Positions 3,747-16,013 of a DNA stretch of 16,269 bases are shown in pieces (the first letter of the stretch is position 1; every line of letters begins with the position of its first letter). The notes beneath the pieces were generated by a model. The model had not been told where the DNA came from and did no database searches. It saw only the letters and a program-made list of their open reading frames with translations. Both the position numbers and the translations under genes were made by a program. Where the stretch lies: UHGV virus genome UHGV-0094181. One strand, written 5' to 3'. The DNA is from a virus.

Positions 3747-4187
3747 TCACTCTCCTTTACCGGTGCCATAGGCAGATAAGCACTCTTCAAATCCAGCCTG
3801 ATTATCCGTTTGACCAAAACTGAAGCCATGCTGAAGACCATGACGAAATGCGCTATCTTGCAATTTATCTGCGGTTTCGAGCTTCGCCTCCAGTTCTGCT
3901 ATGCGCTCTTCATAGCGAGCACCAACCGATACGGCTTTATGGAAGGCTTCGCACCACTTTGACGATTGCGCCTGCATCTTCTCCAGCTCATCCAGCAGCG
4001 CCAGCACGGTAGTGGGGTTTGCTGCGGAGTTCAGCGCGTTCAAGGCAGTGATATCTGCATCAAGCTGAGTTCCTTCTGCCAGTGAGATATCGAAAATGTC
4101 ATCAGGCGGCATAACACTAAGGCGCTCATGTGCGCCAACTGCTGCCGCTGCGATTTCACGCAGCGCCTGTTTGTCGATGTTTCTCAT
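3747..4187 (-). CDS. Ead/Ea22-like protein, 146 aa; N-terminal 68 aa nearly identical to ORF 4184-4711
   Basis: AGGAGG RBS 7 nt upstream; MRNIDKQALREIAAAAVGAHERL... N-terminus duplicated; start overlaps upstream stop (ATGA). Confidence 0.65.
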   Translation of the reverse strand: MRNIDKQALREIAAAAVGAHERLSVMPPDDIFDISLAEGTQLDADITALNALNSAANPTTVLALLDELEKMQAQSSKWCEAFHKAVSVGARYEERIAELEAKLETADKLQDSAFRHGLQHGFSFGQTDNQAGFEECLSAYGTGKGE

Positions 4188-4194
4188 TGGGCGG
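3999..4194. repeat. Direct repeat copy 1 (196 bp perfect match to 4523-4718)
   Basis: Aligned by eye: identical from cgccagcacgg... to ...cattgggcgg; one mismatch at 3998 just outside. Confidence 0.85.
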
Positions 4195-4711
4195 CCTCCT
4201 GGCGGTCTATGCGTTCAATTTCAGCCAGAATAAGTGCGCCAGCTTTTACTAAGTCGCGGCGTGCTCCTGATTGCTTCCACCAGTCAGGAGACCACGGCCA
4301 ATGTGCTGGAGTGGAGAAACCTTGGTTGTGCGCATGAATTGCGTAACAAGCCGCTGCATCTGCTAATTCGCTATTTTGATATGCGTTGTCATGTTCAGGA
4401 GTCCATCCTTCAACCGACTGTTGCCGCTGGCGTTCTGCTACCACATCAAGAATTGCGGGATTGAATGCGCCCCCCTCCAGTTCTGCTATGCGCTTCTCTG
4501 CGGCTTCCAACTCATCCAGCATCGCCAGCACGGTAGTGGGGTTTGCTGCGGAGTTCAGCGCGTTCAAGGCAGTGATATCTGCATCAAGCTGAGTTCCTTC
4601 TGCCAGTGAGATATCGAAAATGTCATCAGGCGGCATAACACTAAGGCGCTCATGTGCGCCAACTGCTGCCGCTGCGATTTCACGCAGCGCCTGTTTGTCG
4701 ATGTTTCTCAT
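4184..4711 (-). CDS. Ead/Ea22-like protein with DUF550-like C-terminal domain, 175 aa
   Basis: C-terminal EGWTPEHDNAYQ...HWPWSPDWWKQSGARRDLVKAGALILAEIERIDR resembles DUF550 as I recall it; N-terminus duplicated in 3747-4187. Confidence 0.7.
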   Translation of the reverse strand: MRNIDKQALREIAAAAVGAHERLSVMPPDDIFDISLAEGTQLDADITALNALNSAANPTTVLAMLDELEAAEKRIAELEGGAFNPAILDVVAERQRQQSVEGWTPEHDNAYQNSELADAAACYAIHAHNQGFSTPAHWPWSPDWWKQSGARRDLVKAGALILAEIERIDRQEAAQ

Positions 4712-4718: not shown

Positions 4719-4980
4719 TTCCTTCGTAACCGATGGCTTCTGCAATTTCAGCAAGTGTCTCTGCACTTTCACCCACTGGCTCATTCATCCAGTCGAAGGA
4801 AACAAGCTTACCGCCTTCGATAACGCCGATGTTGAAATCATCACTACCTTGTGTTTTCAGACCATGCTTGATTGCCTTATCGCGCTTATCGAAGTCAACG
4901 CCGTCTGTCGTGTATTCAACTCCATGGCCTTTCTCGTTGCACCACCAGTACTGCTGAATAACGATGTATGATTTGCTCAT
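4708..4980 (-). CDS. Hypothetical protein, 90 aa
   Basis: AAAGGAG RBS; ATGA overlaps at both ends (4977-4980 and 4708-4711); not recognised. Confidence 0.6.
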   Translation of the reverse strand: MSKSYIVIQQYWWCNEKGHGVEYTTDGVDFDKRDKAIKHGLKTQGSDDFNIGVIEGGKLVSFDWMNEPVGESAETLAEIAEAIGYEGTAQ

Positions 4981-5630
4981 GACTGCACTCCTTTGCGAAT
5001 CTGCTCCCTGAACAAGCGGGCTGAGACGATGATGTCTCTGATGCGTACTGATTTTTCGTCGAACTGCTCACCACCGTTTTTAATATGCGCATCCAGTTCT
5101 GCACTGTGATGCCGAATGAAAGCGTTGAGGTCATGCGCCCGCACTTCAGCCAGGAAATCGTCGGTGGCTGGGGTTGACTCTTGTGGTGACACAGCAACAC
5201 GAATGGCATCAAGTGCCGGGTCTGTATCTACTGTAGGAACCTTGATATAACCCAGTTGCACACCGTTCATGATGAACGTTCGACGGTCCTCACATGTCGC
5301 CTTCAGTCCCGCATTCTCAGCAGCCAGCGTATTGCGTTCATGAGCAAGTTTTTCTGTTTCTTCTTGCGCCAGTTTGTTGACCTGTTCAGCTACTTCCATG
5401 AGTTCGTTAATCACATTTATCTTTGCAGCCATCTTCGCGCATTTAGCCTCAAGGTTATCAATCGTGATTCCAGCAGAACGACACTCCCGCAACGCCGTTT
5501 CCAGTTTTGATTCAAGTTCACCGAACTTACGGACAAGATATTCAGCGTTTGTTTCGTTAACCTTTAAATCTCGTGGGATGCATTTACCTTTCAGAAAACC
5601 ATCCATCTCAATTAGTGACATTTGTTTCAT
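4977..5630 (-). CDS. Hypothetical coiled-coil protein, about 217 aa (start at ATG 5630; ORF-track GTG at 5648 less likely)
   Basis: ATG overlaps stop of upstream 54-aa ORF (ATGA); N-terminal heptad-like charged region. Confidence 0.6.
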
Positions 5631-5791
5631 TTTTTCCCACTCCGCCACATCGCATTCAGATGTTTGTTTTGATTTACTGACGGAAAAGAATTTCTCTTAA
5701 GCAATTCCTCTCTCGATGGCATTGGCTTTACGCGTTGGCGAATAATCATTTCTGCCGGAAGAATGCCGGGATTGTATGCAAGTCCTCTCAT
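5627..5791 (-). CDS. Unlisted small ORF, 54 aa ([54 protein letters not shown])
   Basis: Below ORF-track cutoff; GAGGA RBS 7-8 nt upstream of ATG; stop overlaps next gene start (ATGA). Confidence 0.4.
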
Positions 5792-5807
5792 GGTAAATTC
5801 CTCTTTG

Positions 5808-6122
5808 TTAATTTATTCGTATGCCTGCTCTTTCTTCATCGAGTTTTTTTAGCTTGTATCGCATAGCTCTTACTGAATAAATTGAGCGGCAGGTTGCAAT
5901 TGCTATTTCTTCTGCGGAGAACTTACCGAAAAGTGATACTTCGGCTCTTGTCCATCGTCTTCCACGAAGTCGGTTAACAATGTCAGCGCCAATCCTTGTT
6001 GCTTTTGCCATTACTGCTTTTTCAGTCCTTTCCAGTTTTTCAGCGATAACTTCAACTGGCATTGTCGCCGCTACTTCGCGCAAGAAATCGACTTCCCATT
6101 TCTCCCATGGAGTCTTTTTCAT
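5808..6122 (-). CDS. Hypothetical protein, 104 aa, with two internally repeated W-x2-E...helix-turn-helix-like segments (possible DNA-binding protein)
   Basis: Internal repeat visible in translation ([40 protein letters not shown] / [35 protein letters not shown]); weak RBS, 11 nt after upstream stop. Confidence 0.55.
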
Positions 6123-6133
6123 AGGCGATACCG

Positions 6134-6616
6134 TTATTTGATAAGAAGTGAAGGTTTCCCAACTTTGAGTTGAGCGCCGGGGATATTTATTCCTGCTTTT
6201 AGTTGGTGTTTGATTGCCAGTTTGTCGGCTTTAATTGTCGTTTCAAACTCAACGTATTCAGGAGGAAGGGCGCTTGAGTCGATGATTTCTACAATTTCTG
6301 ACGGTTTGCGGATTGTTACCTGGTGAATACCTGCTCGAATCTTTTTCTTGCCAACCATTTCAAGCGATGACGCTATATATGATTTGATGCTGTCAATCTT
6401 ATTTTGAATTACTGCGGCTCGCTCATTTAGTGACTTTGCCTCTTCCTTGAGGCGTTCAGCATAACCAGATTCATTTTTAATAATGGCAAGAAGTTGCTCT
6501 ATTTTATCGGTAAATTCTCCTTCCATGCCTTCTATTGTGTCAGCAATCATCTCTGGTTCTAAATCTGAATCCATCAATTTTGCGTATTCATTGGCTATTT
6601 CATATAGTTTGCTCAC
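6134..6616 (-). CDS. Siphovirus Gp157-like protein, about 160 aa (GTG start after GGAGG)
   Basis: Size, composition and position next to recT fit the Gp157 family as I recall it; no ATG in frame, GGAGG-N6-GTG. Confidence 0.6.
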   Translation of the reverse strand: MSKLYEIANEYAKLMDSDLEPEMIADTIEGMEGEFTDKIEQLLAIIKNESGYAERLKEEAKSLNERAAVIQNKIDSIKSYIASSLEMVGKKKIRAGIHQVTIRKPSEIVEIIDSSALPPEYVEFETTIKADKLAIKHQLKAGINIPGAQLKVGKPSLLIK

Positions 6617-7514
6617 TGGCAACCTCCAGTTTAGCTTTGCATTCTATGTAAATGGCTTGTACGTTCTGCTGCAATTTCATTCCAGATGTCAGGCGATATG
6701 CTTCTGCAAAATATCGCTTCAAATCATCCATCTTTTCTGCCTGAGCCATTTCATCACAAAGAAGTTGTGCTTTTTCCATTATTTCCTGCTGGCGTTTCCG
6801 TTCATCTTCGCGGATATCTTCCTCTGATTTGTGCGGCATAACTGGTTCAGTCCACACACCTTCTTCTTCGTTTAGTACGTGAATAGCACTATCAAGACGT
6901 GATGCCTTAGGCCAATACTTGCTTGCACGCTTTACGACCGTCTTTCGCGCCATCTCATTCCAGTGATTTACCCATGGTCCTTTATCGCTGAATGCTGCCT
7001 TGCTTGTTTTCCTTACAGCCTCAATTTCAGCCAGACTCATCTCTTCCGTTAGATAATCACCTGCTGGCGTCTTAACTGTGCAGTAAACGCCAACGATATC
7101 ACCACGATCACCGAAGGCGTTGTATTTATGGGTTGGTGCTTTATCAAGCCCGTTTGACTCATAGGTATCGTTAGCATGAACAAGTTTTGCCTGACCCCAT
7201 GAGATAACACCAGACTCCATTGCAATATGGAGCAATCCCATATAGCTGATATCAAGGCAAACCATGCCGTCGCGCGGAACCAGATAAGCCAGTTTGCTGG
7301 CCGGGTTTAAGGTGATGCCGATCGCCGCAACGTTGATGATAGCGTTCTGTGCGCTGGTCGGATTTGCCAGTGCTGTTTTAGCCAGGTAATCATTTTTCTG
7401 GAAATACTGAATTGCAAACTGGCTTTCCTTAGCCCATGTGACTGATTGGTCTGTAACCGCCCCAACAAAGAGCGGCTCTTGCTGTTTAACGAACTCAACA
7501 ATGCTCATGCTCAT
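6600..7514 (-). CDS. recT: RecT-family single-strand annealing protein, 304 aa
   Basis: Conserved core ...ITLNPASKLAYLVPRDGMVCLDISYMGLLHIA... typical of RecT/Redbeta-class SSAPs; follows gam. Confidence 0.88.
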   Translation of the reverse strand: MSMSIVEFVKQQEPLFVGAVTDQSVTWAKESQFAIQYFQKNDYLAKTALANPTSAQNAIINVAAIGITLNPASKLAYLVPRDGMVCLDISYMGLLHIAMESGVISWGQAKLVHANDTYESNGLDKAPTHKYNAFGDRGDIVGVYCTVKTPAGDYLTEEMSLAEIEAVRKTSKAAFSDKGPWVNHWNEMARKTVVKRASKYWPKASRLDSAIHVLNEEEGVWTEPVMPHKSEEDIREDERKRQQEIMEKAQLLCDEMAQAEKMDDLKRYFAEAYRLTSGMKLQQNVQAIYIECKAKLEVASEQTI

Positions 7515-7516
7515 CG

Positions 7517-7813
7517 TTACTGTCCCTCATCAATATCTGTTTGGTGGCGAGCAATTGTCTCTGCCATGTAGCGAATAAATTCAGCGGCCCTTTCCTGAAA
7601 CTCGACGTCATCATCGAATGCTTTGGAAATGGCATTCTTGCTGGCCCCGCGACGTTGCAACTCGTCAACGCACAACGATTCCAGTTTGCTCTGTGGCAAT
7701 CCTTTTTCGAGGTCATCAGCCAGTTCAGATTCACGCTCTTCTCTGGCTATTTGCTGATAATGGCGCGTCCAGTTCTGCGCCTCGATACGGTCTTGAACGA
7801 GATATGCAGCCAT
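7517..7813 (-). CDS. gam: Gam host-nuclease (RecBCD) inhibitor, short GamS-like form, 98 aa
   Basis: [41 protein letters not shown]...[11 protein letters not shown]... closely matches lambda GamS from memory; AGGAG RBS 7 nt upstream; a longer ATG-initiated ORF to 7942 exists without RBS. Confidence 0.85.
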
Positions 7814-7892
7814 AATAGGCTCCTGAAATTTGGTTGTGCGCTGCCCGTCTGCGATAGCCGGACGAGTAGGGGTAATGGGTGTTTGGTGTGGT

Positions 7893-8135
7893 TTACTTGC
7901 CGAGTGCCTTGTCGATGGCGGAACGAGCCATATCAAACTCATCTGTTTGACGGTCTGCTACTCTAACTACAGCCTGCAGAGCTTCCAGTAATTCAGGCGC
8001 TGCAGTAATGAGAGTCTTGTTTTCCTTGCTCGTCATTTCAAGTGGATATCCCTTTCCAAAGACTATGTGATGCTTGTTTCCCAAGCCCTCTTCATCCCAA
8101 AACCACGGACCGGGAGTTCCTTTAAATTCGCTCAT
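7893..8135 (-). CDS. Hypothetical protein, 80 aa ([11 protein letters not shown]...[10 protein letters not shown]), paralog of ORF 8802-9080
   Basis: AGGAAG RBS 8 nt upstream; shared N-terminal EFKGTPG.W and central AAP(E/D)LLEALQ motifs with the 92-aa ORF. Confidence 0.6.
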
Positions 8136-8138
8136 AAC

Positions 8139-8288
8139 TCACTTCCTGTGCCACGGAAAACCAATTGCCGCCTTCATATCGTTGTAGGCTGACATCCACA
8201 TTTCACTATCACCAATAAATCGGGCTATTACTGCTTTGTTCTGTGCAGCACGAAGCATCTGGTGATTAATGGCTATTTCATTGTGCAT
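8139..8288 (-). CDS. kil: Kil-like small protein, 49 aa (MHNEIAINHQMLRAAQNKAVIARFIGDSEMWMSAYNDMKAAIGFPWHRK)
   Basis: Below ORF-track cutoff; GGAGG RBS 5 nt upstream; lies between cIII-like gene and gam as kil does in lambda; IA.FIGD motif resembles my recollection of lambda Kil. Confidence 0.5.
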   Translation of the reverse strand: MHNEIAINHQMLRAAQNKAVIARFIGDSEMWMSAYNDMKAAIGFPWHRK

Positions 8289-8592: not shown

Positions 8593-8805
8593 TTATTCGC
8601 GAGCTTTGAGCATGGCATCAGCAATAAAGTAGGCATCATCTGCTAATTCTTTGTACTGTGGTGAATTCTGTCCACCGCCAAAGGAATGTCCGTCCCATCT
8701 GCGCACTATTGCTGCCATAGCCTTAGCAGCGAAGTAATCACGTAATGTCGCATCACTTGCCATTTCTGGGCGTTTGATATCTGCTTCATAAAACTCGCAC
8801 ATCAT
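8593..8805 (-). CDS. Hypothetical protein, 70 aa
   Basis: GGAGGT RBS; ATGA overlap with upstream gene; not recognised. Confidence 0.6.
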   Translation of the reverse strand: MMCEFYEADIKRPEMASDATLRDYFAAKAMAAIVRRWDGHSFGGGQNSPQYKELADDAYFIADAMLKARE

Positions 8806-9080
8806 TCACCTCCCAGAGCCTTGCTGATTGCTGCCTTGGCTCGTTTGTATTCGGTTAACTCTCTGCACCCTTCGTCATGCTCGTAAAGGAAGACAAGCTC
8901 TTGCAGTGCTTCAAGCAAATCAGGAGCTGCTGCTATCAGTAGCGCATCCTCCCTTTCATTTCTTGTTGCTGCTTCAATGTATGTGTCACCAATCGTCACA
9001 CCATGGAACGTAGTCATCATCTCGTTGACGTTTCTAACCGTGTACTTCCATTTACCAGGCGTACCCTTAAACTCTTTCAT
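8802..9080 (-). CDS. Hypothetical protein, about 92 aa (MKEFKGTPGKW...AAPDLLEALQ), paralog of ORF 7893-8135
   Basis: GAGGTG RBS before ATG at 9080 (ORF-track GTG at 9086 less likely); paralogous motifs. Confidence 0.6.
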   Translation of the reverse strand: MKEFKGTPGKWKYTVRNVNEMMTTFHGVTIGDTYIEAATRNEREDALLIAAAPDLLEALQELVFLYEHDEGCRELTEYKRAKAAISKALGGE

Positions 9081-9102
9081 ATCCACCTCTGTTGTTTATG
9101 CC

Positions 9103-9869: not shown

Positions 9870-10202
9870 TCACCCCTCATACAGTAGCTTACTGCCTAAT
9901 TTCATTTTCTGGCGACCAACACAAGTCACCCCCATTTCACTGCGTGGCTTGCTGTACCATGTGCGCTGATTCTTGTGCTCAATACGTTGCAGGTTGCTTT
10001 CAATCTGTTCGTGGTATTCAGCCAGCACCGTAAGGTCTATCGGATTCAGTGCGCTTTCTACTCGTGATTTCGGTTTGCGATTCAGCGATAGAATAGGGCG
10101 GTTAACTGGCTTTGCGCTTACCCCAACTAACAGGGGGTTTGCTGCTTTCCATTGAGCCTGTTTCTCTGCGCGACGTTCGCGGCGGCGTGTTTGTGCATCC
10201 AT
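9870..10202 (-). CDS. N: Antitermination protein N, 110 aa
   Basis: N-terminus MDAQTRRRERRAEKQAQWKAANPLLVGVSAKPVNRPILSL matches the lambda N arginine-rich motif and body; C-terminal 25 aa diverge; AGGAGA RBS. Confidence 0.95.
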   Translation of the reverse strand: MDAQTRRRERRAEKQAQWKAANPLLVGVSAKPVNRPILSLNRKPKSRVESALNPIDLTVLAEYHEQIESNLQRIEHKNQRTWYSKPRSEMGVTCVGRQKMKLGSKLLYEG

Positions 10203-10740: not shown

Positions 10741-12015
<1,275 letters not shown>

Positions 12016-12428: not shown

Positions 12429-12449
12429 CTGCTTTCTATGGAGTTAATT

Positions 12450-13250
12450 ATGGCAAAAAAACCTACACCAGACCAGGTAAAAAAGATTCGTTCCGGCATT
12501 ACCAAGAAAATACGGTTTGAGGTTTTCAAGCGCGATGGCTTCAAATGCCAGTACTGTGGGAGTTCTGCGCCAGACGTCATCCTTCATGTCGACCATATCA
12601 ACCCAGTTAGCAAGGGTGGCGATAACGACATGATGAACCTTATTACTTCTTGCGATAGTTGTAATGGCGGGAAAAGCGACAAACTGCTCAGCGATAACTC
12701 AATAATGGAAAAGCAAAGGCAGCAACTCCAGGAACTTAATACCAAGCGAGAGCAACTGGAGATGATGATCAAGTGGCGAGATGGTCTTAAGAGCCTAAAA
12801 GACGATGTTGTTGATATTGTCGCTACCAAAATTGACGACTGCATTGCACCATTTACTGTTAATGACAATGGGCGAAAATCTATCAAGAGATGGCTTCGAA
12901 TATATAAGCTTGAAGAAATACTCGATGCGATTGAGATTGCCGCAGACAAAAAACTCACCCAAGAAATAACCAATGAGCTTACTGGTGAATTCTTTGAGTA
13001 CATCCCTCGCATAGCAGCGACAAAAAGAAAACCGCCAAAAGAACAAAGGATTCTATACATCAGAGGAATCCTTAAAAACCGCATATATATCAATCAAAAC
13101 CATGTAATGAGTTATCTCAAGGCATGGCTTTCATACGACTTAGATCTCGATGAACTTACTGAGTTTGCGAAAACAGTACCTAACTGGACAACGTTCAAGG
13201 AGTGGGTATCTGAACGCATTCGTGAAGCTCAGGAAGAACTCCCGTACTAA
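12450..13250 (+). CDS. HNH endonuclease, about 266 aa (N-terminal HNH nuclease motif, C-terminal domain of unknown function)
   Basis: CQYCG...HVDHINPVSKGGDNDMMNLITSCDSCNGGKSDK is a textbook HNH (C-x2-C, H-x-D-H, N, C-x2-C-N); GGAG RBS 6 nt before ATG at 12450. Confidence 0.85.
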   Translation: MAKKPTPDQVKKIRSGITKKIRFEVFKRDGFKCQYCGSSAPDVILHVDHINPVSKGGDNDMMNLITSCDSCNGGKSDKLLSDNSIMEKQRQQLQELNTKREQLEMMIKWRDGLKSLKDDVVDIVATKIDDCIAPFTVNDNGRKSIKRWLRIYKLEEILDAIEIAADKKLTQEITNELTGEFFEYIPRIAATKRKPPKEQRILYIRGILKNRIYINQNHVMSYLKAWLSYDLDLDELTEFAKTVPNWTTFKEWVSERIREAQEELPY

Positions 13251-15370: not shown

Positions 15371-15598
15371 ATGAGTACGATAGCTGAGCTTGTCAGTGCT
15401 AATTTTCGTGAAGAGTTGGTGCGTTGGTATCGGTATCATTCATCGTCCAGTTTGCCGATTGATGAGTTGTATGAGCATTCACCTGCTGCACGACGCTATC
15501 CGCGTGACCGTGTTCTTCGACGGTTGTTCAAACTCAACAATGAGTTTCAGCGCAACAGAATTATCCAGCAATTAGATTTGATGACTGATGATGAATGA
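15371..15598 (+). CDS. Hypothetical protein, 75 aa
   Basis: GGAGG RBS 9 nt upstream; 3' end overlaps ninB-like start; not recognised. Confidence 0.55.
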   Translation: MSTIAELVSANFREELVRWYRYHSSSSLPIDELYEHSPAARRYPRDRVLRRLFKLNNEFQRNRIIQQLDLMTDDE

Positions 15599-16013
15599 TT
15601 TCATTCTGCACGAAACCAATAAATCACAATTCTGGTTAGTTCTGAAACAAATCCTCTCTACCGGCAAACGCTGGCGAATCAAAATATCTGAGTACCGTGA
15701 GAAGCGTACATTGTCACAAAACAATCTGCTGTGGATGTGGAATGCAGAAATAGCCGCACAGTTATCTGCTGCTTCTGCTGAAAACTTCACGCCTGAAGAG
15801 GTTCATGAGTGGCTGAAAGATATATTTTGTCCGGCTAAAAGGGTGACGATTTTTAATATTACACGATGCGTTAAATCAACACGTCAGCTTGATATTGGAG
15901 ATATGCACAAATATCTGACCGATATTGACCAGTGGGCGCATCAGAAGGGATTACGACTAACCATTCCTGATAATTGCGAGTACCGGGATCTAAAGGAGAG
16001 GCAAGTAGAGTGA
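15588..16013 (+). CDS. ninB: NinB/Orf-family protein, 141 aa
   Basis: KRTLSQNNLLWMW motif resembles NinB RSLDQNRKLW motif (recollection); position after ren/tR2. Confidence 0.6.
   Translation: MMNDFILHETNKSQFWLVLKQILSTGKRWRIKISEYREKRTLSQNNLLWMWNAEIAAQLSAASAENFTPEEVHEWLKDIFCPAKRVTIFNITRCVKSTRQLDIGDMHKYLTDIDQWAHQKGLRLTIPDNCEYRDLKERQVE

Follow-up and report, generated by a model that had tools for sequence, protein, structure and literature searches.

The window analysed here, a 16,269-nt stretch of the virus genome UHGV-0094181, is part of a lambdoid, Dewey/P22-like prophage whose nearest phage is Escherichia phage Dewey (PQ850600). In its leftward early (pL) operon, four genes follow one another on the minus strand in the order gam, recT, gp157 and abc1-like (Table 1), with gaps of 2 and 11 nt and one 17-nt overlap between them; no internal terminator was found in this cassette. 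The gam, recT and gp157 genes all lie on the strand and at the coordinates given in the initial annotation, whose gene identities and chosen start sites are borne out by the profile matches and ribosome-binding sites described below. The order gam-recT-gp157 is common to eight related prophages that differ in their immunity, replication and ea genes, with the 104-aa abc1-like gene next in seven of the eight. Because this order is kept while the surroundings differ, we take the cassette to move as a unit.

Table 1. Features of the cassette and of other genes of the window that bear on its interpretation
Feature	Coordinates	Strand	Evidence or context
gam, lambda GamS-type RecBCD inhibitor, 98 aa	7517..7813	-	PF06064, GamS structures, AGGAG RBS
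recT, whole gene	6600..7514	-	
recT core, aa 1-222, RecT-family single-strand annealing domain	6849..7514	-	PF03837, TIGR00616
recT C-terminal domain, aa 223-304 + stop, helical tail of Gp157-linked annealing proteins	6600..6848	-	CTD identity comparison
gp157, Sipho_Gp157 family, 160 aa, proposed RecT partner	6134..6616	-	PF05565, GTG start + GGAGG
abc1-like gene, 104 aa, tandem helix-turn-helix	5808..6122	-	phrog_323
217-aa coiled-coil ORF, outside the cassette	4977..5630	-	AF2 all-alpha; no Pfam/NCBIfam nuclease match
HNH gene, sole nuclease-family ORF of the window	12438-13250		Rightward operon, between cII and O
ninB/orf-type recombination mediator, further recombination function outside the cassette	15588..16013	+	phrog_72, E=2.7e-34

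In a profile search, the Gam reading frame matched PF06064 over the full length of GamS (E=1.5e-50, 169.9 bits vs a cut-off of 25), the match covering residues 44-138 of the long open frame. The protein also matches the solved lambda GamS structures 2UUZ and 5MBV (E=2.8e-44 over 96 residues) and is 76% identical to lambda-type Gam by tblastn. The in-frame ORF extends upstream to 7942, and a 141-aa form beginning there had been put forward as an alternative. The Gam profile does not reach the first 43 residues of this form, which is not on record; the extension is probably not used. The 98-aa GamS-like form, preferred earlier for its strong internal ribosome-binding site, holds up: it starts at ATG 7813 with AGGAG 7 nt upstream, and exactly this product is found in 460 blocks of public assemblies.

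The annealing protein encoded by the next gene falls into a core and a tail. The core belongs to the RecT family (PF03837, E=3.6e-32, 112 bits vs a cut-off of 24; TIGR00616, 82.5 vs 52.65); its match to 7UB2, a solved RecT structure, is weak. The protein scores below the Rac RecT equivalog NF007351 (100 bits vs a cut-off of 296), with about 34% identity to Rac RecT. Compared with the cores of the phi80 (62%), PA2 and Vibrio phage 1.198.B RecTs, its core shows 62-77% identity. The C-terminal domain (CTD) is 47% identical to those of the Gp157-linked RecTs of HK639 and Klebsiella phage KO-TP1, vs 14-19% to those of Exo-linked RecTs. The tail of phi80 RecT, by comparison, shares 73% identity with the CTD of lambda Bet, and phi80 RecT matches the Bet CTD structures 8TFU and 6M9K, the latter of which we take to be the Bet CTD-Exo complex, at E=6e-32 and 2e-25; the RecT of the window matches neither structure. 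As judged from these alignments, the window RecT has a tail of about 80 aa that replaces the lambda-Beta-type, Exo-binding CTD.

Gp157 matches PF05565 end to end as a single domain (profile positions 1-162, E=6e-38, 130.8 bits vs a cut-off of 28.6). It starts at GTG 6616 behind GGAGG, overlaps the last 17 nt of recT and is translationally coupled to it. A search at E<=0.001 gives 7,853 cluster representatives of this large family, and nearly all of the 150 homologues listed are about 160 aa long. The AF2 model (pLDDT 83) consists of a long helix, residues 21-87, and a small beta domain, and only K38, K132 and G147 are near-invariant among 77 family members. Several public annotations start Gp157 14 codons too late.

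The 104-aa protein encoded downstream falls in phrog_323 (E=7e-20), the PHROG that also holds P22 Abc1 (2.1e-23) and Mu gp9 (5.2e-29). BLASTP finds similarity to Mu gp9 (5e-5) and no pairwise similarity to P22 Abc1, so that membership of the Abc1 family holds at the profile level only. Besides the seven prophages, all 80 IMG/VR loci have the gene after gp157, as do 5 of 13 species-level loci. The 217-aa ORF beyond it is predicted to be entirely alpha-helical with a long coiled coil (AF2, pLDDT 77). It belongs to the mosaic Ead/Ea22 type of protein, with a middle part that varies among relatives, and it is not conserved beside the cassette, its place being taken by other genes in related prophages. 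Homologues of this ORF carry the NCBI name 'hNH endonuclease', for which neither Pfam nor NCBIfam gives support. The initial annotation had suggested that one of these two adjacent proteins supplies a nuclease, a suggestion that did not survive: the 104-aa product was ruled out because it belongs to the Abc1/Mu gp9 family and has a tandem helix-turn-helix, and the 217-aa product was rejected as a hidden nuclease on account of its all-helical coiled-coil model, its mosaic, variable family and its lack of conservation next to the cassette.

Pfam, PHROG and NCBIfam scans covering almost every pL-operon ORF of at least 54 aa found no nuclease family. Searches by tblastn with lambda Exo and Rac RecE returned nothing in any frame of the window, not even remnants, and nothing in the eight related prophage loci, in the whole genome of Dewey or in the mEpX1, Gally and HK639 loci; the annotation of the complete Dewey genome lists no exonuclease. 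Among 94 further related loci (80 from IMG/VR and 14 species-level loci), none had Exo, YqaJ or RecE within 3 kb. These scans agree with the earlier statement that no RecE/YqaJ/lambda-Exo-like nuclease lies nearby. The module is thus not of the two-component exonuclease and annealase type (lambda Red, RecET, YqaJK), having neither an adjacent exonuclease nor a Bet-type CTD. Zheng et al. 2025 define a 'P22' functional class (Table 1 of PMC12315714), in which a contiguous early-left cluster encodes an anti-RecBCD function and an annealing protein but no nuclease or SSB, and the module fits this class. Such nuclease-less modules, 84 of 246 lambdoid Rec modules in that survey (Zheng et al. 2025, PMC12315714), or about one-third, have already been described and are common; the absence of an exonuclease is therefore ordinary and not new. 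The number of Chi sites in the window, zero against 0.4 expected, is uninformative.

The place that an exonuclease gene would take is filled by gp157. In lambda Red (gam-bet-exo) and phi80 (gamL-recT-exo), the genes have the same operon position and the same order of inhibitor, annealing protein and partner as in the window, but there the partner is a YqaJ-family 5'-3' exonuclease and the annealing protein ends in a Bet-type Exo-binding tail; both are replaced here. A nuclease also follows recT in PA2 (gamL-recT-exo-ssb) and Vibrio phage 1.198.B (recT-YqaJ-OB), and HK639 and KO-TP1 have gamL-recT-gp157-regulator. Gp157 thus occupies the exact position of the YqaJ/lambda-Exo gene in sister RecT modules. 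In other phages, the annealing protein that precedes gp157 is Sak4 or yet another one. In Firmicutes phages, either Gp157 or Mu Gam is found at one and the same place next to erf and sak4, and Gp157 usually lies upstream of the annealing protein (PMC8093625), so that the 'exo slot' is not universal.

The tail of RecT goes with Gp157 rather than with the annealing core. The RecT tail and the closest Gp157 are found in one and the same set of 24 phage records, and tail and Gp157 agree in 13 of 13 evaluable species-level loci from other species. In phage PdC23, an ERF-family protein adjoining Gp157 has a tail 57% identical (E=9e-15) to that of the window RecT. On the Sak4 and Vibrio annealing proteins that adjoin Gp157 no such tail was found, and an HMM built from three tail sequences gave no significant match to the annealing protein of Vibrio phage 1.148.O, YX3973 Sak4 or PMG1_00054, the last being marginal at 0.003. 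Among the loci compared here, the tail occurs solely beside Gp157, on RecT and Erf-family cores alike. Co-variation of this kind could reflect co-inheritance of one block of DNA; the Erf case argues against this.

Profile comparisons suggest that Gp157 is weakly Mu-Gam-like. Aligned by hhalign with six diverse Mu Gam sequences, the Gp157 family is colinear over 133 columns (P=4.8e-4), with a score of 29.5 vs a maximum of 23.5 in 62 shuffles, all of which it exceeds; the invariant K and G of the Mu Gam alignment fall on K132 and G147. Sub-threshold matches to PF07352, the profile of Mu Gam and Ku-like end-binding proteins, were seen in 16 of 77 family members. The Gp157 of the window has no Pfam match to PF07352, BLASTP finds nothing between Gp157 and Mu Gam, and the profile comparison was negative when Mu Gam was represented by one sequence or by a shallow alignment, turning weakly positive only with the six diverse sequences. 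Against PDB sequences the family profile returned coiled-coil noise only. The likeness to Mu gam is thus one of weak, colinear profile similarity, and the two proteins differ in PHROG (253 for Gp157, 491 for Mu Gam).

Because Gp157 holds the exo slot, and because the Beta-type CTD has been traded for a tail linked to Gp157, we propose that Gp157 is probably the docking partner of RecT. On this basis, we interpret the locus as an exonuclease-less four-gene cassette in which Gp157 would be the dedicated, non-catalytic partner of RecT and resection would be left to the host, a reading to which we assign a probability of roughly 60%. By homology to lambda GamS, Gam would block host RecBCD, allowing linear phage ends and rolling-circle tails to survive. 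Single-stranded substrate could then be supplied by the host, through RecJ acting together with RecQ or a different helicase while RecBCD is off, or arise at replication forks; reliance on a host nuclease, one of the two options offered in the initial annotation, would be the most plausible source of resection. RecT, as a member of its family, would anneal complementary single strands. Gp157, as a coiled-coil dimer distantly like Mu Gam and without catalytic activity, may engage or protect DNA ends and bring RecT to them, and the Abc1-like helix-turn-helix protein would be an accessory factor, as Abc1 is in P22. Extended to the Sipho_Gp157 family at large, the proposal becomes more tentative, and we think it possible rather than probable: Gp157 proteins would be non-catalytic partners, docking on a C-terminal module that annealing proteins (RecT, Erf and perhaps others) have for this purpose, and would replace the phage exonuclease in coupling the annealing protein to DNA ends. 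This would be a second kind of two-component phage recombinase, an annealase with an end-binder, that leaves resection to the host.

There are other ways to account for Gp157. It might be a second, independent anti-nuclease or end-protector of Mu Gam type that duplicates the role of lambda Gam, lies beside recT only through clustering of Rec genes and has no contact with RecT. PHROG 253 and Zheng et al. (PMC12315714) do label this protein type 'MuGam', anti-RecBCD; the weak profile similarity to Mu Gam is consistent with the label, and HK639 has been noted to carry two anti-RecBCD genes (Zheng et al. 2025, PMC12315714). However, a Gam-type gene (lambda Gam, GamL or the 103-aa type) lies upstream of recT in every version of the cassette, so that Gp157 as an anti-nuclease would be redundant everywhere, and this explanation accounts neither for an annealing-protein CTD that tracks Gp157 across RecT and Erf cores nor for the overlap of the recT stop with the gp157 start. 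We consider it unlikely. Distinctly more doubtful is that Gp157 is a cryptic, highly diverged nuclease that carries out resection and is in the exo slot for that reason. It does share position and translational coupling with the YqaJ/Exo genes of sister modules, and the order alpha-beta-beta-beta-alpha-beta of its model resembles a minimal PD-(D/E)XK core, which is our own reading and not a search result; a Foldseek search of BFVD placed five PD-(D/E)XK or exonuclease proteins among the best 50 (E 0.009 to 0.8). Those matches have low TM-scores, however, and half of the protein is one long helix. There is no Pfam nuclease match and no (D/E)xK motif in the family, and no acidic residue is invariant: D113 is D in 59 of 77 members and N in 15, D131 is variable and E59 is A in 5. 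The profile scores at background against lambda Exo and RecE (11-13) vs 25-31 against Mu Gam sequences.

An explanation just as improbable as a cryptic nuclease dispenses with end resection altogether: RecT would act on single-stranded DNA at forks only, and Gp157 and the Abc1-like protein would be regulators that have nothing to do with DNA ends. For lagging-strand recombineering with oligonucleotides, RecT or Beta is enough by itself, and both the 104-aa protein and the 'regulator' of the HK639-type cassette look like DNA-binding proteins. But the nearest phage, Dewey, carries a P22-like virion module, and phages of this headful-packaging kind have terminal redundancy and need recombination between their ends in order to circularise. 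The strict linkage of tail and Gp157 would also be unexpected for a mere regulator. It is very improbable, finally, that a partner nuclease is encoded elsewhere, whether by the HNH gene or by a gene outside the window. The window does contain this HNH endonuclease ORF, and some HNH genes have been accepted as Rec-module nucleases when contiguous with the module (Zheng et al., PMC12315714). This one, however, belongs to the rightward operon between cII and O and is absent from six of eight related prophage loci with an identical cassette, one other locus having an unrelated HNH_3 gene, and the complete genome of Dewey has no Exo, RecE or YqaJ gene.

What is useful here is neither the missing exonuclease nor the Gam-RecT-Gp157 gene set, which is already present in sequenced phages, but a testable hypothesis for Gp157, a family of thousands in phages of both Gram-positive and Gram-negative hosts. 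Gp157 and its proposed docking tail would mirror the solved lambda Beta-Exo pairing. If correct, the hypothesis would explain how many phages recombine without a nuclease of their own, could give recombineering tools with other host dependencies, and would be relevant to the question of why phage proteins that bind ends make phages sensitive to defences such as Gabija.

Dewey has the same four genes in the same order as the window, with 98.8% DNA identity over 87% of positions 4900-8200 and 98.5% over 71% of the whole window; the window differs in having a lambda/434-type integrase end and other ea genes. HK639 and KO-TP1 likewise combine a Gam-type gene, a RecT with the same type of tail (47%), Gp157 (63%) and a small DNA-binding-like protein, with no nuclease, but have GamL in place of lambda-type Gam and a 141-aa phrog_1680 'regulator' in place of the Abc1-like protein. 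The modules of HK140, mEpX1, Gally and Kapi1, recorded as SAP-4 plus MuGam with no nuclease (Zheng et al., PMC12315714), are 96-97% identical in DNA to the window across recT, gp157 and the 104-aa gene. This form is the commonest (77 of 80 IMG/VR loci) and differs in having, upstream of recT, a 103-aa protein (phrog_3486) with only a local Gam-like motif in place of lambda Gam. The arf-erf-abc1-abc2 module of P22 resembles the cassette as a nuclease-less Rec module of a P22-like phage with an Abc1-family accessory gene, in the same class of Zheng et al., but it has Erf for RecT and Abc2 for Gam, and no Gp157; according to the literature, Abc2 modifies RecBCD rather than blocking it. In phage Mu, gp9, which shares its PHROG with the 104-aa protein of the window, lies upstream of gam. 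We set this pairing aside as support for Gp157 being a Gam, as it is not conserved in Mu-like phages outside Mu. In the annotation of Dewey, Gam is entered as the long ORF and Gp157 in truncated form.

The gene content of the window is that of a lambdoid prophage early region (see table), and among sequenced genomes it is closest to Escherichia phage Dewey, a podophage of the P22-like type (98.5% identity across 71% of the window). Pfam scans bore out the initial annotation of three recombination genes as gam (PF06064, E=1.5e-50), recT (PF03837, E=3.6e-32) and a Gp157-like gene (PF05565, E=6e-38, end to end). Gam also matches the solved lambda GamS over 96 residues (E=2.8e-44). In NCBIfam, RecT exceeds the cut-off of TIGR00616 and lies far under that of the Rac RecT equivalog model. 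The two start sites proposed earlier were right as well. An AGGAG ribosome-binding site precedes the 98-aa Gam start, and this exact product occurs in 460 blocks of public assemblies, against no record of the 141-aa alternative. Gp157 starts at GTG 6616 behind GGAGG, overlapping the end of recT by 17 nt, and its homologues are nearly all 160 aa among the matches listed. Several GenBank annotations place this start 14 codons late; Gp157 is annotated from an internal ATG (146 aa) in the comparison loci from Dewey (L001 7163-7603), Gally (L002 4618-5058) and mEpX1 (L004 5710-6150). The upstream GTG is favored over this ATG by the ribosome-binding site, by the family profile and by homologues 160 aa long. 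The intergenic gaps of the cassette are 2 nt and 11 nt, and neither a minus-strand terminator nor a convincing promoter was found inside the block.

Features of the window, in whole-stretch coordinates
Feature	Coordinates	Strand	Remarks
Integrase and excisionase	left end of window
Leftward operon		-	N, cIII, kil, recombination genes, then variable 'ea' genes
Ead/Ea22-type ORF	3747-4187	-	adjoins next ORF
Ead/Ea22-type ORF	4184-4711	-
217-aa ORF	4977-5630		coiled coil
104-aa ORF	5808-6122	-	Abc1-like
gp157	6134-6616	-
recT	6600-7514	-
gam	7517-7813	-	98-aa product
Small paralogous ORF	7893-8135	-
Small paralogous ORF	8802-9086	-
N	9870-10202	-
132-aa ORF	10741-11139	-
C2/cI-type repressor	11064-11696
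Rightward operon			cro/cII, HNH gene, O, DnaC-like loader, ninB
HNH endonuclease, 270 aa	12438-13250	+	sole nuclease-family ORF; between cII and O

The unit has a fourth member, the 104-aa ORF, which comes after gp157 in 7 of 8 related prophages and in all 80 IMG/VR loci, as well as in mEpX1, HK140 and Gally. Its product has two helix-turn-helix repeats and belongs to phrog_323, which is common to P22 Abc1 and Mu gp9. BLASTP matched it to Mu gp9 (5e-5) and returned nothing for Abc1, so its likeness to Abc1 holds at the profile level. P22 Abc1 itself has no established function (PMC12315714).

The initial annotation saw no RecE, YqaJ or lambda Exo-like nuclease nearby, and this held. When nearly all leftward-operon ORFs of at least 54 aa and the rightward genes were scanned with Pfam, PHROG and NCBIfam, no member of the Exo, YqaJ, RecE or DnaQ families was detected. 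With lambda Exo and Rac RecE as queries, tblastn gave no match to the window, to the complete genome of Dewey, to eight related prophage loci or to the loci from mEpX1, Gally and HK639. The full Dewey annotation contains no exonuclease, and none lies within 3 kb of the cassette in IMG/VR loci (0/80) or in loci from other species (0/14). This absence is ordinary and already documented, and the cassette belongs to a known kind of module, because 84 of the 246 Enterobacteriales lambdoid Rec modules surveyed by Zheng, Casjens, Davidson, Amundsen and Smith (Genome Res 2025; PMC12315714) have no nuclease gene, P22 likewise lacks one, and Dewey already presents the same gene combination in GenBank. 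The survey lists HK140, whose RecT, Gp157 and 104-aa genes have ~96.5% DNA identity to those of the window, as 'SAP-4 with MuGam, no nuclease' and singles out HK639 for having both GamL and 'MuGam' (PMC12315714).

The suggestion that the 217-aa ORF might supply the nuclease did not survive: the protein is predicted to be wholly helical with a long coiled coil, its family is a mosaic with a variable center, and other genes take its position in related prophages. Database homologues (P0402, P0416 and others) are often named 'hNH endonuclease', a name that looks like a propagated misannotation: no Pfam domain is recorded for them, and the prediction for the window protein is all-helical. Some variants carry a Cys/His-rich central insert that is missing from the window copy. 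The HNH gene of the rightward operon looks like a mobile insertion. It is missing from 6 of 8 related prophage loci carrying the same cassette; both Dewey and one related prophage (L007) have it, and another (L008) has an unrelated HNH_3 gene there. The best NCBIfam matches of its HNH domain are IscB and Cas9 models.

Two module types contain RecT proteins whose cores (residues 1-222) are 62-77% identical. In one, found in phi80, Stx phage PA2 and Vibrio phage 1.198.B, a YqaJ-family exonuclease gene lies directly 3' of recT and overlaps its stop codon (the phi80 and PA2 enzymes are 86-88% identical to lambda Exo), whereas in HK639, KO-TP1, mEpX1 and relatives, as in the window, Gp157 occupies this slot. 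At residue 222 the two groups of RecT part abruptly: identity across the last 80 residues is 47% among Gp157-linked RecTs and only 14-19% between the groups. By sequence comparison, the Exo-linked tail is the lambda Beta C-terminal domain. Residues 180-254 of lambda Bet and the tail of phi80 RecT share 73% identity despite cores from different families, and phi80 RecT also matches both solved structures of the Bet C-terminal domain (8TFU and 6M9K, the latter its complex with lambda Exo). The window RecT matches neither entry.

The window-type tail tracks Gp157 and not the core. The annealing protein of Pantoea phage PdC23 belongs to the ERF family (PF04404, E=6e-44), and its C-terminal 46 residues match the window tail (57% identity, E=9e-15); the ERF gene is followed by an inserted HNH gene and then by a Gp157 that is 62.5% identical to that of the window. 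Among 50,697 phage records, the tail is present in 24, which are exactly the 24 with the closest Gp157 (at least 56% identity) and represent about seven lineages. In a one-genome-per-species collection, Gp157 lies directly downstream in 13/13 evaluable tail-bearing loci. Read by analogy to the Beta-Exo pair, the window-type tail would most simply be a docking site for Gp157.

A Gp157 that is itself a cryptic nuclease would fit its position in the Exo slot and its weak BFVD matches to PD-(D/E)XK proteins, but no acidic residue is invariant across the family: 15 of 77 members have N in place of D113, and D131 varies. It is also improbable that Gp157 is simply 'the' anti-RecBCD gene of such modules, since the slot 5' of recT always contains a Gam-type gene: lambda Gam, GamL or the gene for a 103-aa protein in which a Gam-like motif (DDDxx[FY]QE[KR]AAE; BLASTP 8e-5) occurs locally. 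PHROG curators and Zheng et al. label the Gp157 type Mu-Gam-like (PMC12315714), a likeness that our comparisons reproduced only partly. BLASTP of Gp157 against Mu Gam gave nothing, the window protein has no Pfam Mu Gam match, and a shallow profile comparison, the family profile against PDB sequences and three fold searches gave no support for Mu Gam. An hhalign comparison of the family with six diverse Mu Gam sequences was colinear over 133 columns (P=4.8e-4), pairing K132 and G147, near-invariant in the Gp157 family, with K138 and G153, invariant in the Mu Gam alignment. Its score of 29.5 compares with a maximum of 23.5 in 62 reversed or shuffled controls; single Mu Gam sequences scored 25-31 against 11-13 for lambda Exo and RecE. 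Sub-threshold PF07352 matches occur in 16/77 family members. In Firmicutes phages, Mu Gam and Sfi21 orf157 homologues alternate at one position beside erf and sak4, and Steczkiewicz et al. proposed an analogous function for them (PMC8093625). In the AF2 model of Gp157 (pLDDT 83), one helix of 67 residues is accompanied by a small beta domain.

We consider a non-catalytic Gp157 partner of RecT to be part of the probable mechanism, which as a whole we rate at about 0.6. Gam would turn off RecBCD and RecT would anneal complementary single strands, both by strong homology. Gp157, probably dimeric and end-associated, would bind the RecT tail, the single strands would be supplied by host enzymes or replication, and the Abc1-like protein would be an accessory. 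The comparative evidence suggests the RecT-Gp157 partnership, and we infer end binding by Gp157 and resection by the host. The available literature does not describe Gp157 as a RecT partner, the family name bringing descriptive mentions only; what is added here is a specific, testable role.

Several further observations concern the cassette in other genomes. The 103-aa protein (mEpX1 gp35, L004 7084-7395, minus strand), which may be a third kind of Gam, fills the Gam slot in 77/80 IMG/VR loci, the commonest cassette form. In PdC23 (L028 2015-3590) and Candidatus Erwinia dacicola (L119), an HNH_3 homing-type endonuclease gene is inserted at the exact junction of the annealing-protein gene with gp157, and phage Louie has an HNH feature at the RecT-Gp157 junction. 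In Pseudomonas phage PMG1 (L029 1758-2998), a 248-aa protein annotated 'exonuclease' has no Pfam match and overlaps the Gp157 gene start; its C-terminus weakly resembles the HK639 RecT tail (BLASTP 1e-4), and it may be an unrecognized annealing protein rather than a nuclease. Two ~1.9-kb contigs filed as Micromonospora and Streptomyces (L116, L117) contain RecT-Gp157 cassettes of enterobacterial type, the RecT core being 80% identical, most likely through contamination of those assemblies.

Elsewhere in the window, the two Ead/Ea22-type ORFs are identical over their first ~63 aa and then diverge, the product of either partial duplication in tandem or shuffling of modules within the ea region. 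The small paralogous ORFs lie on either side of the cIII-kil segment and belong to phrog_1273 (PF27050 in related loci); one is directly 5' of gam in all related prophages read. The 132-aa ORF just downstream of the repressor gene matched no family and has an internal, signal-peptide-like hydrophobic segment. Its true start is probably internal because it overlaps the end of the repressor ORF as listed, and it is possibly a lysogeny-expressed moron.
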